A model generated the notes under the pieces. That model did no database searches. It saw only the letters and a program-made list of their open reading frames with translations, and was not told the DNA's origin. This document shows positions 2,855-38,764 of a DNA stretch of 39,977 nt, piece after piece. This DNA comes from an uncultured virus (IMG/VR IMGVR_UViG_3300011871_000003) (lineage: Duplodnaviria > Heunggongvirae > Uroviricota > Caudoviricetes). Every line of letters starts with the position of its first letter. The first letter of the stretch is position 1. The translations under genes and the position numbers were made by a program. The DNA lies in IMG/VR virus record IMGVR_UViG_3300011871_000003; one strand, given 5' to 3'.

Positions 2855-3118
2855 ATGAGGTCGTTTATGTGTAATAATGTTAAAGATAAAAAAGAGTTAA
2901 CAGGTATGGATAAAATCGTTCATAACGCAATGCTTTACTCATTCAGAGTAAAGTTTGGCCCATTCCAAAAATGTCCAGAATGTTATGGATTGTTGAAAAG
3001 CTGTCCATTGTGTCAAGGTCGTGAAAAAGTGAGTGTAGCAGAAGTGGAATCCTACAATAATCCTATTTCCAAAATAATGAGAAAAAACAGTAGTAACAAA
3101 GAAAGAATAGCGATATAA
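2855..3118 (+). CDS. small zinc-finger-like protein
   Basis: CPECYG...CPLCQG (two CxxC motifs). Confidence 0.65.
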   Translation: MRSFMCNNVKDKKELTGMDKIVHNAMLYSFRVKFGPFQKCPECYGLLKSCPLCQGREKVSVAEVESYNNPISKIMRKNSSNKERIAI

Positions 3119-16977: not shown

Positions 16978-17006
16978 TTGACTTTATAATTTTATTAACG
17001 CATAAT
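16978..17006 (+). promoter_or_regulatory. sigma70 promoter for Y-RNA-like gene 2 and Ro60
   Basis: TTGACT-17 bp-CATAAT. Confidence 0.75.
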
Positions 17007-17011
17007 GAGAT

Positions 17012-17129
17012 ATTACACTTTAGACAGTGATTATTCAGTTACTTCATATGATAAAGAGCAAGGAGTATCATGCCCAGACGGGTTATGAAACTTCTTTTAT
17101 ACTGACTAAAGTATTCTTCTAAGTGTAAT
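17012..17129 (+). ncRNA. Y-RNA-like ncRNA 2 (about 118 nt)
   Basis: ATTACACT/AGTGTAAT and TAGA/TCTA stems; CAGTGA; TTATTCAGT/ACTGACTAA; GTTACTTC; internal hairpin closed by GCCC-agac-GGGT; TATTCT. Confidence 0.72.
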
Positions 17130-17225
17130 CATTTCAAATAAGCTAATGAGCTTTATCTCAAGACCTTGAGGTTTGTTCCATAAGAGATGGTAATAAATAA
17201 TTTAACGAACATAAAAGGTGATATA

Positions 17226-18881
17226 ATGAAAATCAATAAAAAAGCAATGTCTACTAATTCTCATACTGAAATTCAGAAAAAAGAAGGTCATGTTAATCAT
17301 ATGGCAGGTGTGTCTTATGATATCAATGATCCAATTAAACAGTTAAGAATTATAGCAAGTTCAAGCTTTTTTGGAGAGCCTAACTATTACCATGAAGATA
17401 TTAAAAAAGGTGAAAAAAGAGCTGATGATCATTCTGTTGTAAAGGCTAAAAAATTAAATAAAACTCAAGAAAAATACTTAGAGCAAACACTTGGTCAGGT
17501 AATTTCAATTCCTGAGTATCACTCCTATTCTACAACTAAGATTATGGAAATGGCTATTGACGAAGCTATTGCTTTTGATGCTGAAGCTGCTTTGAAAGAG
17601 GCTGTACGTCTTCGTAATGAAGAAAATATTCGTACAACTCCACAAGTAATTATGGTAAGAGCTGCTAATAGTGACAAAGTTCGCGGAACAGGATTGATCC
17701 GTAAATATGCTTTAGAAATCATGAAAAGAACTGATGAAGCTGCCGTACAGCTTGCTTATCAATTACAAGTTTATGGTCGCCCAATCCCTAATGCTTTGAA
17801 AAAAGCATGGAAAGCATTTTTAGAATCAAGAAATGAATATCAAGTTGCTAAGTATCGTATGGAAACAAGAGCATATAAAACATTAGACGTAGTGAACTTG
17901 GTTCACGCAAAAAGTGATGTTATTGATAAGTTGATGAAAGGCGAGTTGAAGCTTCAAGAAAACACTTGGGAATCTTTCATTTCAGCTAATGGTTCGACTA
18001 AAGAGAATTGGGTTAAAGCAATAGATCTTATGGGTCATATGGCATTATTGAGAAATATCGTTAACTTCATTAAAAATGGAGTTGATTATAAACTCTATTT
18101 ACCAAAACTGAAAGCAACAGCAAAAGATGGAAAACAATTGCCATTCCGTTATTATTCTGCCTATAACATGGCAAAATCAAGCGGAGCAAACGGTGTTATT
18201 CTTGATGCTATCGAAGAATGTCTTGAGTTATCTCTTGGTAATCTCCCACATTTTGAAGGTAAGACAATGAGTTTGTGTGATAACTCTGGTTCTGCTCAGG
18301 GAGCATTTACTTCATCTGCTGGAACAATGTCAGTAGCAAACATTGCTAACTTAACGGCTGTAGTAACAGCTAAAGTATCTGATGAAGGGTATATTGGAGT
18401 ATTTGGAGATCGTCTTGAAGTAGAGCCTATTCGTAAGAAAGACTCTGTATTTACACAAGCTGAACAAGCGAATAAAAAAGGTTCAACCGTTGGTGGTTCT
18501 ACAGAAAACNNNNNNNNNNNNNNNNNNNNNNNNNNNNNNNNNNNNNGAATTTGGTTATTCTTTGATAGGGCTATTAAAAACAAAGAACATTGGGATAACA
18601 TATTTGTATATTCAGATATGCAAGCAGGTCATGGTGGTTTATATGGAACAAACCCATCTGAATATTCCAAATACAAATGGAGCAATAGCCATTACATTGA
18701 TGTAGCGAAATTGATTAAGGATTATCGTAAAACAGTAAATCCAAATGTAAATGTTTTCTTAGTTCAAGTAGCTGGTTATAAGGATACTCTTGTTCCAGAG
18801 TTCTATGAAAAAACATATATTCTTGGTGGTTGGGGTGATGGATTACTTCGTTTTGCTAAAGAGATGTCAAAAGAAATTTAA
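17226..18881 (+). CDS. rsr: Ro60/TROVE-vWA RNA-binding protein (Rsr-like)
   Basis: TROVE motifs SFFGEPNYY, IRTTP, AKY, TWE, MALLRN, QLPFRYYSAY; vWA MIDAS-like DNSGS, GGSTEN, YSDMQ; start at ATG 17226 (AAGGTGA RBS). Confidence 0.92.
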   Translation: MKINKKAMSTNSHTEIQKKEGHVNHMAGVSYDINDPIKQLRIIASSSFFGEPNYYHEDIKKGEKRADDHSVVKAKKLNKTQEKYLEQTLGQVISIPEYHSYSTTKIMEMAIDEAIAFDAEAALKEAVRLRNEENIRTTPQVIMVRAANSDKVRGTGLIRKYALEIMKRTDEAAVQLAYQLQVYGRPIPNALKKAWKAFLESRNEYQVAKYRMETRAYKTLDVVNLVHAKSDVIDKLMKGELKLQENTWESFISANGSTKENWVKAIDLMGHMALLRNIVNFIKNGVDYKLYLPKLKATAKDGKQLPFRYYSAYNMAKSSGANGVILDAIEECLELSLGNLPHFEGKTMSLCDNSGSAQGAFTSSAGTMSVANIANLTAVVTAKVSDEGYIGVFGDRLEVEPIRKKDSVFTQAEQANKKGSTVGGSTENXXXXXXXXXXXXXIWLFFDRAIKNKEHWDNIFVYSDMQAGHGGLYGTNPSEYSKYKWSNSHYIDVAKLIKDYRKTVNPNVNVFLVQVAGYKDTLVPEFYEKTYILGGWGDGLLRFAKEMSKEI

Positions 18882-30302: not shown

Positions 30303-30600
30303 GTCAGTAACCCCGCCCTGTCGGACGAGGCTTGTAACTGAAAACAGCCTTATCGTTTTCCTAAACAAGTCTCCGACTTGGATTAACTGACCAGCCTTAG
30401 TCTGTGAAACGCTGAGTTTTACAGACTACGTTAAAAAACAGATGACACCGTAGAATGCTTCTCCAGTTCTATGCAATGTCGTAATACATTAAACATTTCT
30501 TTGGGGTAAGGAAAAGTGTGTGCTACATGAAATGTTTTTTAACTTTGGCGAGGAGATATTACTTTATGAAAAACGCCGTTTTTCATAAAAGATAAAAGGT
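30303..30600 (+). ncRNA. IscB omega-RNA scaffold (3' end approximate)
   Basis: Structured leader between left end and iscB with TGACCAGCCT, CTACGTT, ATGCTTCTCCAGT and TTGGCGAGGAGA elements typical of omega-RNAs. Confidence 0.8.
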
Positions 30601-30630: not shown

Positions 30631-31926
30631 ATGAACAGAGTTTTTATATTAGGTAAAACAGGTAAAACGTTGATGCCCTGCCATCCGGCAAGGGCAAGAC
30701 AGCTATTGCATAGCAAAAAAGCAAGAGTTAAACGTCTTTATCCTTTTACTATACAGTTAACTCAGCGTTCAAACGGATATATACAGCCTGTTGAACTCAA
30801 GTTCGATCCGGGTTCAAAACAAACAGGTGTAGGGCTGGTTTTACATGGGAAAAACAGGCTGTCTGCCATATATGGCGCAGTGTTAACGCATCGGGGACAG
30901 GAAATAAAAAGCAATTTAGATAGTCGGCGTATAATAAGAAGGGCCAGAAGAAACCGCAAAACCAGATACAGGCAAACACGGTTCCTTAATCGTGTAAGAA
31001 GTAAGCATAAAGGATGGTTGGCTCCATCCGTCCAGAGCCGTGTAGATAATATAGTGGAATGGTCTAAGCGTTTCATACGATTGTCTCCTGTTGGTTTTAT
31101 CACAGTTGAATCAGTTAAGTTCGATATGCAGAAGATGGAAAACGCTGCAGTTGAAGGACTTGAGTACCAGCGTGGCACGCTGTTTGATTACGAAGTAAAA
31201 GAATATTTGCTTGAGAAATATAATTATAGCTGCGTCTATTGTGGAGTAAAAAACGTGCCGTTTGAAAAAGAACATGTTATTCCACGTAGCCGTGGAGGAA
31301 GTAACAGAATAAGTAATCTTGTGTTATCCTGTCATGATTGTAACCAGAAAAAAGACAACTTGCCAATTGAGGTGTTTTTGAAGGACAACCCTGTGTTATT
31401 GAAAAAGATAAAAGCACAGTTAAAAAGTCCATTAAAAGATGCGGCAGCAGTCAATATAACCCGAAAACAAATCGTAAAAGAACTGTCTGATTTAAATGTG
31501 CCTGTTCTGACGGGAACGGGAGCAGAAACGAAGTATAACAGAGAAAGCCAAAAATATCCTAAAGAACATTATATAGATGCGTTGTGCGCAGGCACAACGG
31601 GAGCGAAGGTGTATATACCGTATAAGTTAAAGCCATTGTTGATAAAAAAGGAAAGAAGAAATAACAGGCAGATGTGTCTTGTAGATAAATATGGTTTCCC
31701 GCGAGGAAAAGCGAAAGGACCTAAGATAGTACATGGATTTAAAACAGGCGATATAGTGAAAGCTATAGTATTGAAGGGAAAGAAAAAAGGAATATATAAA
31801 GGTAAAGTAGCAGTAAGGTCAAGTGGAAGCTTCAATATAAAAGTAAAACAGGGCGTAGTAGAAGGAATAGGCTGGAAGAACTGCGTAATGCTGCATAGGT
31901 TCGATGGGTATAGCTATACTTATTAG
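30631..31926 (+). CDS. iscB: RNA-guided endonuclease IscB
   Basis: TLMP (PLMP), RuvC-I FDPGSK, Arg-rich bridge helix, RuvC-II VE, HNH EHVIPRSRGGSN..N...C..CN, RuvC-III HYIDA; catalytic residues intact. Confidence 0.95.
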   Translation: MNRVFILGKTGKTLMPCHPARARQLLHSKKARVKRLYPFTIQLTQRSNGYIQPVELKFDPGSKQTGVGLVLHGKNRLSAIYGAVLTHRGQEIKSNLDSRRIIRRARRNRKTRYRQTRFLNRVRSKHKGWLAPSVQSRVDNIVEWSKRFIRLSPVGFITVESVKFDMQKMENAAVEGLEYQRGTLFDYEVKEYLLEKYNYSCVYCGVKNVPFEKEHVIPRSRGGSNRISNLVLSCHDCNQKKDNLPIEVFLKDNPVLLKKIKAQLKSPLKDAAAVNITRKQIVKELSDLNVPVLTGTGAETKYNRESQKYPKEHYIDALCAGTTGAKVYIPYKLKPLLIKKERRNNRQMCLVDKYGFPRGKAKGPKIVHGFKTGDIVKAIVLKGKKKGIYKGKVAVRSSGSFNIKVKQGVVEGIGWKNCVMLHRFDGYSYTY

Positions 31927-33299: not shown

Positions 33300-33304
33300 A
33301 AAGC

Positions 33305-33333
33305 TTGTAAGACATAAACAGAATAGTTATAAT
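33305..33333 (+). promoter_or_regulatory. sigma70 promoter for ncRNA cluster
   Basis: TTGTAA-17 bp-TATAAT. Confidence 0.75.
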
Positions 33334-33359
33334 GAAATCCTAGACGTTAGTAAAGAGAA

Positions 33360-33502
33360 AGTCTCGACGTATAATATAAAGGTGTGGCTGGTGTCCAGTT
33401 TCTTTCGCGGAGAAACAAGCAGATCGTCCCTGAAATCCTCTTATACGATGCAATGGTAAGGTGTTAGCGGCGGCTAATGGCAGGTTCGAATCCTGAGAGA
33501 CT
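33360..33502 (+). ncRNA. tRNA-like ncRNA A (about 143 nt)
   Basis: AGTCTC/GAGACT closing stem next to T-arm CAGG-TTCGAAT-CCTG; extra arms CGTATAA/TTATACG and TTAGC-ggcg-GCTAA. Confidence 0.55.
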
Positions 33503-33503
33503 G

Positions 33504-33605
33504 ATTTTTAATGAGGTATTAAGAAGCGTAAGTTGTTTTCAGATGATGCATGATTTATCATGGTGGCTCTGATGAAGGTTTACCAGTTGATACCTCATTA
33601 AAAAT
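33504..33605 (+). ncRNA. rod-like hairpin RNA B (about 102 nt)
   Basis: 19-bp terminal stem (one G-U) ATTTTTAATGAGGTATTAA/TTGATACCTCATTAAAAAT; inner TCAGA/TCTGA and CATGA-ttta-TCATG. Confidence 0.55.
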
Positions 33606-33608
33606 AAT

Positions 33609-33731
33609 GGCGTGAGCGAAGTGGTGTATTTTCTTTTTGTGGAGAGGTATATTGCTTGGTTGCTTTAACGGGAGTAAAAAGGCACAAAACTTTTTATTTC
33701 TAGTGGGGTTCGAATCCCTGCCACGCTTCCA
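33609..33731 (+). ncRNA. tRNA-like ncRNA C with encoded CCA (123 nt)
   Basis: Acceptor GGCGTGA/CCACGCT, discriminator T, CCA; T-arm TGGGG-TTCGAAT-CCCTG; no canonical D or anticodon arm. Confidence 0.65.
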
Positions 33732-33735
33732 ATAT

Positions 33736-33762
33736 AACCATATTCTCGAATATGGTTTTTTT
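33736..33762 (+). terminator. terminator closing ncRNA cluster
   Basis: AACCATATT-ctcg-AATATGGTT plus T-tract. Confidence 0.8.
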
Positions 33763-33778
33763 ATTTCAGGAGAATAAA

Positions 33779-34024
33779 ATGGATATAGGTTCAGAAATAA
33801 GCATAAGAACAAATCTTGGTCAGAATAAAGGTATTATTTCAGATGTTGTAGATTATGAAGGGGGCATTATTTATAGTGGATATATCGATGGTCGTCATGG
33901 ATTCGAGATAATCTATGTAAAGAATGATGATAGATATAGTGGAGATGTATCTTGGGATCAACAATATTCTAAAAAACTTGGATATAACGCATCATTTATT
34001 GAAGAATTTTCAGAAGTTAAATAA
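33779..34024 (+). CDS. hypothetical protein
   Basis: Start moved to ATG 33779 (AGGAG RBS). Confidence 0.7.
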   Translation: MDIGSEISIRTNLGQNKGIISDVVDYEGGIIYSGYIDGRHGFEIIYVKNDDRYSGDVSWDQQYSKKLGYNASFIEEFSEVK

Positions 34025-38602: not shown

Positions 38603-38644
38603 ATAAATATTGAAATTGATATAAAAATAACGTAATATGTTTAA

Positions 38645-38764
38645 AGGATGTAGCAGACTATGTAAATAGACATCCAACTACCTAAAAAAGTCGAGGCCAA
38701 GCCCGGTAAAGGTTTTCTGAATACCAGAGTAGCTCTGGCGAAGCCCTCTTGAGAGGGCTTTGTT
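38645..38764 (+). ncRNA. possible structured sRNA or attenuator leader
   Basis: Promoter TTGAAA-17 bp-TAATAT (38610-38638); stems GGATGT/ACATCC, CCAGAG/CTCTGG, AAGCCCTC/GAGGGCTT. Confidence 0.45.

Follow-up and report, generated by a model that had tools for sequence, protein, structure and literature searches.

A CCA-ended tRNA-like RNA with the architecture of bacteriophage T4 rnaC in an uncultured virus record

The RNAC molecule of bacteriophage T4 has been known since the 1970s. Its gene, rnaC, is annotated as a "small, stable RNA; species 1 RNA" beside rnaD and a transfer RNA (tRNA) gene for arginine (AF158101, positions 70908-71046, equivalent to 2909-3047 on the minus strand of locus L023). 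A blastn search places copies in 748 GenBank phage records, and no Rfam family matches the sequence. Passages of three papers (PMC3014915, PMC9697503, PMC12685909) still give its function as unknown, and the last of these reports that rnaD, its neighbour, mutated convergently in the course of adaptation to a host. The literature that we searched contained no account of rnaC function or of a contact between its loops. Here we describe an RNA gene of 123 nucleotides (nt), at positions 33609-33731 on the plus strand of a 39,977-nt stretch of DNA assigned to an uncultured virus (IMG/VR record IMGVR_UViG_3300011871_000003, analysed whole and hereafter called the window), which shares the architecture of rnaC. 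An earlier note, made from the letters of the window, had singled out this segment, below called module C, as a CCA-ended mimic of the upper half of a tRNA.

T4 rnaC folds at -50.2 kcal/mol (z-score -4.40) and contains, from 5' to 3', an acceptor stem, a 3-bp helix bearing a long hairpin, an A-rich linker, a 10-bp hairpin and a T arm. The second hairpin ends 1 nt before the T arm (CCGGG-UUCGAAU-CCCGG), and the molecule finishes with a discriminator U and ACA. A consensus drawn from seven divergent copies comprises 44 pairs, 22 of them with compensatory changes. In T4 the apex of hairpin 1, UUGACG, is complementary base for base to CGUCAA in the loop of hairpin 2, and in phage TG1 both loops have changed together, to UUGAUG and CAUCAA. 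Treated as a pseudoknot, this loop-loop helix is paired in all seven sequences with one compensatory pair (C-G to U-A, in TG1), and the complementarity recurs in 10 out of 10 further T4-type copies present among 23 IMG/VR loci fetched. We also observed that an internal segment of T4 rnaC, CGGAACG, pairs at seven of seven positions with the 3' acceptor strand and so betters the true 5' end.

Module C follows the same order of parts. Its acceptor 5' strand GGCGTGA (33609-33615), preceded by T at position -1, pairs at six of seven positions (the mismatch opposes A7 and C66) with the strand CCACGCT, which opens the 3' segment 33721-33731 and is followed by a discriminator T (33728) and an encoded CCA (33729-33731); this whole segment is identical in the four copies of the gene introduced below. 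The T arm (33704-33720), TGGGG-TTCGAAT-CCCTG, has a 5-bp stem and the loop TTCGAAT. The stem abuts the 7-nt acceptor strand, then come the discriminator and CCA, and the spacing is exactly that of a tRNA. Both sequence and fold thus bear out the earlier description of this half, including six acceptor pairs out of seven, the discriminator, the encoded CCA, the T loop and the tRNA register.

The D-arm position is occupied by hairpin 1 (33619-33657), carried on a 3-bp helix (33615-33617 with 33659-33661) and with G-U pairs making up six of its 13 basal pairs, much as the earlier note had seen a long G-U-rich hairpin standing in for the D arm. Its apex lies at 33632-33644. A single-stranded linker of 8 nt (GCUUUAAC, 33662-33669), which aligns with the UUUAA(A) linker of rnaC, leads to hairpin 2 (33670-33701). 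Here the earlier description gives way: the favoured fold has a 12-bp stem (GGGAGTAAAAAG/CTTTTTATTTCT) with an 8-nt loop (GCACAAAA, 33682-33689) in place of the proposed TGCTTT/AAGGCA arm with a 12-nt loop. Hairpin 2 ends 2 nt before the T stem, in the place of a class II variable arm, and the whole forms a four-way junction of acceptor, 3-bp helix with hairpin 1, linker, hairpin 2 and T arm. As an isolated 123-mer the RNA has a minimum free energy of -42.6 kcal/mol (z-score -3.54), and none of 200 shuffled sequences was equally stable. Neither a D loop nor a 7-nt anticodon loop is present. The apex segment UUUUGUG of hairpin 1 (33635-33641) is complementary to CACAAAA in the loop of hairpin 2 (33683-33689), and the two could form a kissing contact of seven Watson-Crick pairs (duplex -6.1 kcal/mol).

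Conservation was followed in other records. The nearest, G001, is a 341,648-bp IMG/VR record labelled as a provirus that holds the locus at 97% identity. No DNA match to the element was obtained in complete Escherichia coli genomes or in GenBank phages, and further homolog searches returned G001 alone once more. A metagenome scan yielded at least 80 loci, and among the matches listed a covariance model of module C (R2) recognized two true homologs, L093 and L109. The resulting alignment of four copies (window, G001, L093 and L109) represents three distinct sequences, L093 being identical across the RNA and L109 the most distant copy. All 46 proposed pairs are kept in the three variants, those of the loop-loop helix and the 12 of hairpin 2 included. 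Only four sites of the RNA vary, namely three switches between G-U and A-U in stems (1:72, 18:42 and 65:90) and one bulge; the change of G1 to A in L109, for example, turns the pair G1-U72 into A-U. Between L109 and the window, 4 of the 123 positions of the RNA differ (3.3%), whereas the leader has 11 changes in 18 positions and the tail 14 in 44 (flanks 32-61%). A 1-nt insertion in the L109 tail disrupts an overlapping minus-strand open reading frame (ORF; 33558-33812), and no convincing ORF was found in 33300-33778.

Public runs of 12 studies other than the possible source also contain the stretch bearing the locus; they cover wastewater, food, groundwater, soil and plant samples, and its sequence is essentially invariant over the runs of those studies. 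Four assemblies from RNA libraries show no variant in 33358-33745. The earlier note had held that a normal cloverleaf in homologs would speak against its proposal; the three other copies all keep the non-cloverleaf fold. We take segment 33609-33731 to be a real, selected, tRNA-like RNA gene.

So complete a tRNA upper half in register goes far beyond chance, and existing tRNA models do not call it. The sequence GGTTCGAATCC occurs twice in the window (33483 and 33707) versus 0.25 times expected. A composite motif, consisting of a 5-bp T stem, a TTCRANN loop, 7 nt, any base and CCA, with a 5' strand pairing at six or more of the seven positions within 25-199 nt, has a single instance in the window; of 300 windows simulated with a first-order Markov model, 5 held it. 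With default settings ARAGORN detects no tRNA and no transfer-messenger RNA (tmRNA) in the whole window, as had been anticipated, and at a relaxed threshold it draws only a poor 79-nt "tRNA-Leu(caa)" at 33653-33731. The canonical set of features, with a GG-containing D loop and an anticodon arm of 5 bp and 7 nt, is absent from the RNA. Searches around the locus with Rfam at E-values up to 10 gave nothing relevant, and the tRNA model did not match.

Placed side by side, module C and rnaC follow one plan. Each has an acceptor stem of seven positions and, in tRNA register, a T arm with the loop UUCGAAU, a D arm replaced by a 3-bp helix and a long irregular hairpin, an A/U-rich linker of 8-10 nt, a second hairpin of 10-12 bp that ends 1-2 nt before the T arm, and a discriminator U followed by NCA; their apical loops are mutually complementary over 6 nt in the T4-like RNAs and 7 nt in module C, and neither matches an Rfam family. 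They differ in the tail, which is CCA in module C (four of four copies) and ACA or UCA in the T4-like RNAs (seven of seven), in the length of hairpin 1 (39 nt versus about 60-65 nt) and in the acceptor stem, where T4 has two U-U mismatches and module C one A-C mismatch. Outside the T arm there is no significant similarity in primary sequence. Loop complementarity is a criterion that we derived in this analysis, not one taken from the literature. When 12 RNAs were compared, only three had runs longer than 4 nt between loops, module C with 7 nt and both rnaC sequences with 6 nt. The remaining nine were T4 rnaD, a class II tRNA-Ser, the neighbouring module A described below and six further elongated elements from G001 that resemble tRNAs.

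The two RNAs were compared through covariance models in both directions. Over the whole T4 genome R2 has a single match, which falls in rnaC (27.3 bits, E-value 6.4e-4), and it ranks the rnaC copy first in seven of seven T4-like loci, above every true tRNA there. The scores of rnaC and of the best tRNA in these loci were 27.3/13.8, 26.4/14.2, 23.6/17.4, 19.9/15.8, 18.8/17.4, 15.8/15.7 and 15.0/13.1 bits. The rnaC of phage TG1 aligns to R2 helix by helix over its full length. Conversely, the best match in the window of R1, a model of the seven rnaC sequences, is 33652-33731, with a weak score (14.4 bits, E-value 0.078). Eight further genomes (RB49, RB43, KVP40, Aeh1, RaK2, GAP32, T5 and LR745206) yielded no rnaC-like RNA with either model under stricter filters. 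E-values of 1 or less were reached there by R2 in two genomes, with the tRNA-Cys of GAP32 and a 14.5-bit match in Aeh1, and by R1 in one, with a 77-nt match of 17.2 bits in KVP40; the Aeh1 and KVP40 matches were left unexamined.

Several observations weigh against reading module C as an expressed mimic of the rnaC type. In two of the seven T4-like loci rnaC leads the best true tRNA by 1.4 bits or less, and R2 gives 25.3 bits to the genuine tRNA-Cys of phage GAP32, 21.7 bits to tRNA-Glu and 19.6 bits to tRNA-Ser of phage G, and 17.4 bits to another tRNA-Ser. Since true tRNAs score nearly as well, the score of rnaC with R2 is owed largely to the shared tRNA upper half; the matches to tRNA-Ser place hairpin 2 at the site of the class II variable arm. 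In G001, R1 ranks module C second to a tRNA-Arg, with an E-value of 1.1. The settings differ as well: rnaC lies in tRNA clusters of Straboviridae and module C in a unit of three modules, with no tRNA in 40 kb. The loop match opposes a run of U to a run of A in an AT-rich genome; 1.6% of shuffled loops do as well, as do 0.2% of random segments from the window, and forming the match requires that four weak apex pairs of the minimum free energy fold be opened. The homolog search and covariation analysis suggested by the earlier note gave three other copies with all pairs kept; the three distinct sequences of this lineage hold no double compensatory change. Contigs from RNA libraries span the flanks as well as the RNA and so cannot show transcription; those of run X18 stop at 33601 and resume at 33755, leaving module C uncovered, and are uninformative on expression. 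Finally, the analogy yields no mechanism, because the function of rnaC is itself unknown.

On balance, homology with rnaC is unproven and architectural equivalence is shown. Lacking a D loop and an anticodon arm, the RNA cannot decode, and the idea of a non-decoding tRNA mimic put forward in the earlier note gains support from the intact and conserved acceptor/T half, the missing D and 7-nt anticodon loops and the rnaC-like plan. Judging from sequence, we consider it probable that 33609-33731 encodes an expressed, non-decoding mimic of the tRNA upper half of the rnaC type. This RNA would represent the T4 RNAC kind, known but unexplained, within an unrelated element and with CCA carried in its gene.

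Module C is the last part of a larger unit. Constrained folds divide 33340-33731 into three independent modules. Module A (33358-33504), folded with RNAalifold on the four copies, is a tRNA-like module without CCA. It comprises a closing stem (AGUCUC at 33359-33364 with GAGACU at 33497-33502), a hairpin GUUAGC-GGCG-GCUAAU and the second TTCGAAT T arm of the window (CAGG-TTCGAAT-CCTG, 33481-33495). Its closing pair A33359-U33502 becomes G-C in L109, and one pair of the hairpin at 33398-33416 is U-G, C-G and G-C across the three variants. Module B (33504-33606), supported by the fold and RNAalifold, is an imperfect hairpin of about 100 nt with the base TTTTTAATGAGGTAT/ATACCTCATTAAAAA. Upstream lies the promoter-like site TTGTAA-17-TATAAT (33305-33333), with 10 of 12 consensus matches, in a region where such sites are in total no more numerous than in shuffled sequence. 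This site is likely the start of a primary transcript of about 430 nt beginning near 33340; because module A has a covarying closing stem that starts at 33359, transcription is expected to begin upstream of 33358. Downstream, a terminator-like hairpin of 9 bp (AACCATATT/AATATGGTT) with loop CTCG is followed by a run of T (33736-33762). It was passed over by the scanning tool because it contains too few G-C pairs, and in L109 its stem is retained and its loop altered. All these features are on the plus strand.

The minihelix formed by acceptor stem and T arm, together with CCA, is read by RNase P, the CCA-adding enzyme, T-loop modification enzymes, EF-Tu and several synthetases, and some toxins attack the 3' ends of tRNAs. 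Module C presents such a minihelix with a free CCA, and for this reason we propose that it competes for a factor of this sort. It would be transcribed together with modules A and B from the promoter-like site to the hairpin and T run, and host RNase P would then cut its 5' end at G33609, recognizing the stack of acceptor and T arm and the NCCA end; the base at -1 is U and the 3' end is UCCA, which we take to suit bacterial RNase P. The 3' end could be trimmed or repaired to CCA, and the loop-loop contact might bind both hairpins into a compact, nuclease-resistant body. The mature RNA would accumulate and act through its tRNA-like half, not as a decoder on the ribosome. It may compete for, or act as a decoy of, a host factor that recognizes the minihelix or the free CCA, such as a defence toxin directed at tRNA ends, an enzyme of tRNA repair or processing, or a synthetase. 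This specific decoy mechanism is a tentative proposal that could well prove wrong. More speculatively, and to our mind rather unlikely, rnaC-type RNAs could be an old, widely dispersed family of viral "kissing-loop" mimics of the tRNA upper half, occurring far beyond the T4-like phages. If so, the tRNA-Cys-like acceptor, U73 and encoded CCA of module C would allow recognition, and perhaps charging or modification, at the 3' end, host defences aimed at tRNA 3' ends or acceptor stems would be absorbed, and the 50-year-old puzzle of T4 RNAC would be explained.

Other explanations place the purpose of the locus elsewhere. Modules A and C might serve processing and stability, as RNase P "punctuation" and 3'-end protection, for instance for module B, with the 123-nt product as a mere by-product. 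Three structured modules head to tail behind one promoter-like site and before one terminator would suit such a role, and so would the tRNA-like nature of module A, which has no CCA, and the location of T4-like rnaC genes, which are spaced 4-6 nt from tRNAs within polycistronic clusters dependent on RNase P cleavage. Yet conservation is highest in module C (L109 differs at 6 of 104 positions in module B and 11 of 147 in module A), and punctuation needs neither two long hairpins with complementary loops nor a CCA kept in four of four copies, which makes this account quite unlikely. A link to the TROVE protein of the element was also considered, with module C as a tether in the manner of Y RNAs or as a structured RNA on which Ro60 acts. 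A TROVE/Ro60-like ORF, a genuine anchor for the Ro60 substrate suggested in the earlier note, lies at 17187-18881 on the same strand as the RNA (Pfam E-value 3.9e-6, 26.7 bits versus a cut-off of 23; phrog_850), and its best phage relative is gp540 of Bacillus phage G (41.6% identity). Chen et al. 2014 (PMC4201824) describe tRNA-like domains in bacterial Y RNAs and list YrlA of Mycobacterium smegmatis as a substrate of RNase P and of CCA addition. YrlA (RF02553) thus resembles module C as a tRNA-like non-coding RNA with a canonical T arm, found in elements encoding Ro60/TROVE and acted on by tRNA enzymes. In topology they part: YrlA is permuted (PMC4201824), ending in the Ro-binding stem, with a loop closing its acceptor-like stem and the D arm kept, whereas the acceptor ends of module C are free. 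That source also puts nearly all YrlA within about 4 kb of the Ro60 gene, versus 14.7 kb between module C and the TROVE gene. An exact GNCGAAN0-1G motif is missing from the RNA, in which GAGCGAAG is one base off, RF02553 stays below cut-off in the RNA region and in G001, and another hairpin with a long stem stands just ahead of the TROVE gene. Identity with YrlA or a Y RNA is rejected on topology, distance and RF02553, and a partnership with the TROVE protein appears improbable.

Could module C be a decayed or rearranged tRNA gene, derived for instance from tRNA-Cys or a class II tRNA and now without function? The element is rich in duplicated, non-canonical tRNA-like sequences, the genuine tRNA scoring highest with R2 is a tRNA-Cys, and relaxed ARAGORN settings do draw a cloverleaf, if a poor one. 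A dead gene, however, would hardly diverge by so little while its immediate flanks change so much, confine its paired-site substitutions to those that keep pairing, retain CCA and an unusually stable fold, share loop complementarity with rnaC only among the 12 RNAs compared, or remain near-invariant over the public runs of 12 studies; decay is very improbable. The last alternative, an unconventional decoding tRNA in which the 8-nt loop of hairpin 2 acts as an expanded anticodon loop in the manner of frameshift suppressors, can point to the length of that loop, to the GCA that it contains, and to an acceptor stem and U73 that presumably resemble those of tRNA-Cys. Its stem is 12 bp long instead of 5, no U33-like position, D arm or G18G19 exists, hairpin 2 sits in the variable-arm and not the anticodon position, and both ARAGORN and the Rfam tRNA model reject the RNA. 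Class II tRNAs (Ser, Leu) share with module C the placing of hairpin 2; they and tRNA-Cys differ from it in possessing a D loop and an anticodon arm of 5 bp and 7 nt, and tRNA finders are silent on module C. We regard decoding as extremely improbable.

Two further identities were tried and rejected. The tRNA-like domain of tmRNA has an acceptor, a T arm and CCA without an anticodon arm, and long helices as its lower half, as module C does. Module C has C3-G70 instead of G3-U70, lacks a tag frame and a ring of pseudoknots, and is 123 nt long; the genuine tmRNA of phage G looks quite different. A tmRNA-like RNA of 350 nt can be drawn, in which GGTGTGG (33381-33387) pairs at seven of seven positions with the 3' strand. 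It was rejected because the forced fold is 17.8 kcal/mol worse (-86.9 versus -104.7 kcal/mol), because a change of G to A at 33382 in L109 breaks a G-C pair, and because the ARAGORN tmRNA search is negative, at the relaxed threshold as well, and G3-U70 is missing. An intron-containing tRNA was rejected since the intron mode of ARAGORN finds nothing at the locus.

As an expressed rnaC-type mimic, module C would provide a second, distant example of a T4 RNAC-type RNA to study. A different sequence with the same module order and loop complementarity offers a comparative argument that selection acts on shape rather than sequence, and the loop-loop pairing would be a concrete tertiary contact. The variant with an encoded CCA sharpens the question whether rnaC-type RNAs work via their 3' end. 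The class is probably under-annotated in phage genomes, since standard tRNA finders and Rfam miss it.

The surrounding DNA, part of a giant phage-like element, is AT-rich (G+C 0.24-0.39 per kb of window; element about 30%) and crowded with short ORFs, mostly on the plus strand. Besides the TROVE protein, genes of the window code for an antirestriction protein, a SocA/Panacea-domain protein, a PilS-like pilin and an RRXRR+HNH protein, and G001 encodes an RNA ligase like T4 Rnl1. A neighbourhood with TROVE, antirestriction and Panacea-domain genes, and with the Rnl1-like ligase in G001, is compatible with an arms race at the RNA level, without proving it. Further products of G001 are an M49 peptidase, a DNA methylase, SSB, a MutS-like protein of 837 aa and six or more PilS-like pilin paralogs. 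The G001 ORFs scanned (with PHROGs, 45 of the 90 that reach 250 aa; with Pfam, 150 further or repeated ones that reach 170 aa) showed no capsid, portal or terminase gene, and the term phage therefore rests on the IMG/VR label. The status of G001 as a virus may be doubtful, or the record may be part of a bigger genome.

Just upstream of the TROVE gene, about 130 nt (17005-17135) fold into a long end-to-end stem with internal hairpins (-36.9 kcal/mol, z-score -3.85), a Y-RNA-like shape that matches no Rfam family. Over the window Rfam reports only two RNAs, neither at the locus of module C. One is a HEARO RNA (30303-30562, 136.3 bits) adjoining the RRXRR+HNH protein of 431 aa (30631-31926), together an IscB-like RNA-guided nuclease module; G001 has a second RRXRR+HNH ORF at 88391-89686. 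The other is a borderline match to sroH at 38623-38761 (84 bits versus a gathering score of 80), in an element without DNA similarity to E. coli genomes.

In G001 the copy of module C lies at 13.9 kb, the nearest tRNAs being at 85 kb or beyond. ARAGORN finds 34 tRNAs in this record, all distant from the RNA locus, alongside many non-canonical tRNA-like pieces. At 84-90 kb, 170-190 kb and 298-300 kb (L009, L013-L014 and L019) tRNA-Met, tRNA-Leu(taa) and tRNA-Arg(tct) recur in arrays. These regions also hold two tRNAs with anticodon cta, and ARAGORN intron mode calls a tta tRNA. Elongated CCA-ended tRNA-like elements that are not called as tRNAs measure 149 nt (ending near 186.1 kb), 188 nt (about 181.1 kb) and 101 nt (about 84.4 kb), and their loops show no complementarity of the kind seen in module C. 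Further elongated tRNA-like genes occur in the unrelated IMG/VR viral contigs L073 and L066/L071; the one in L073 ends in CCA, its D arm and acceptor stem are normal, and additional hairpins are inserted ahead of its T arm.

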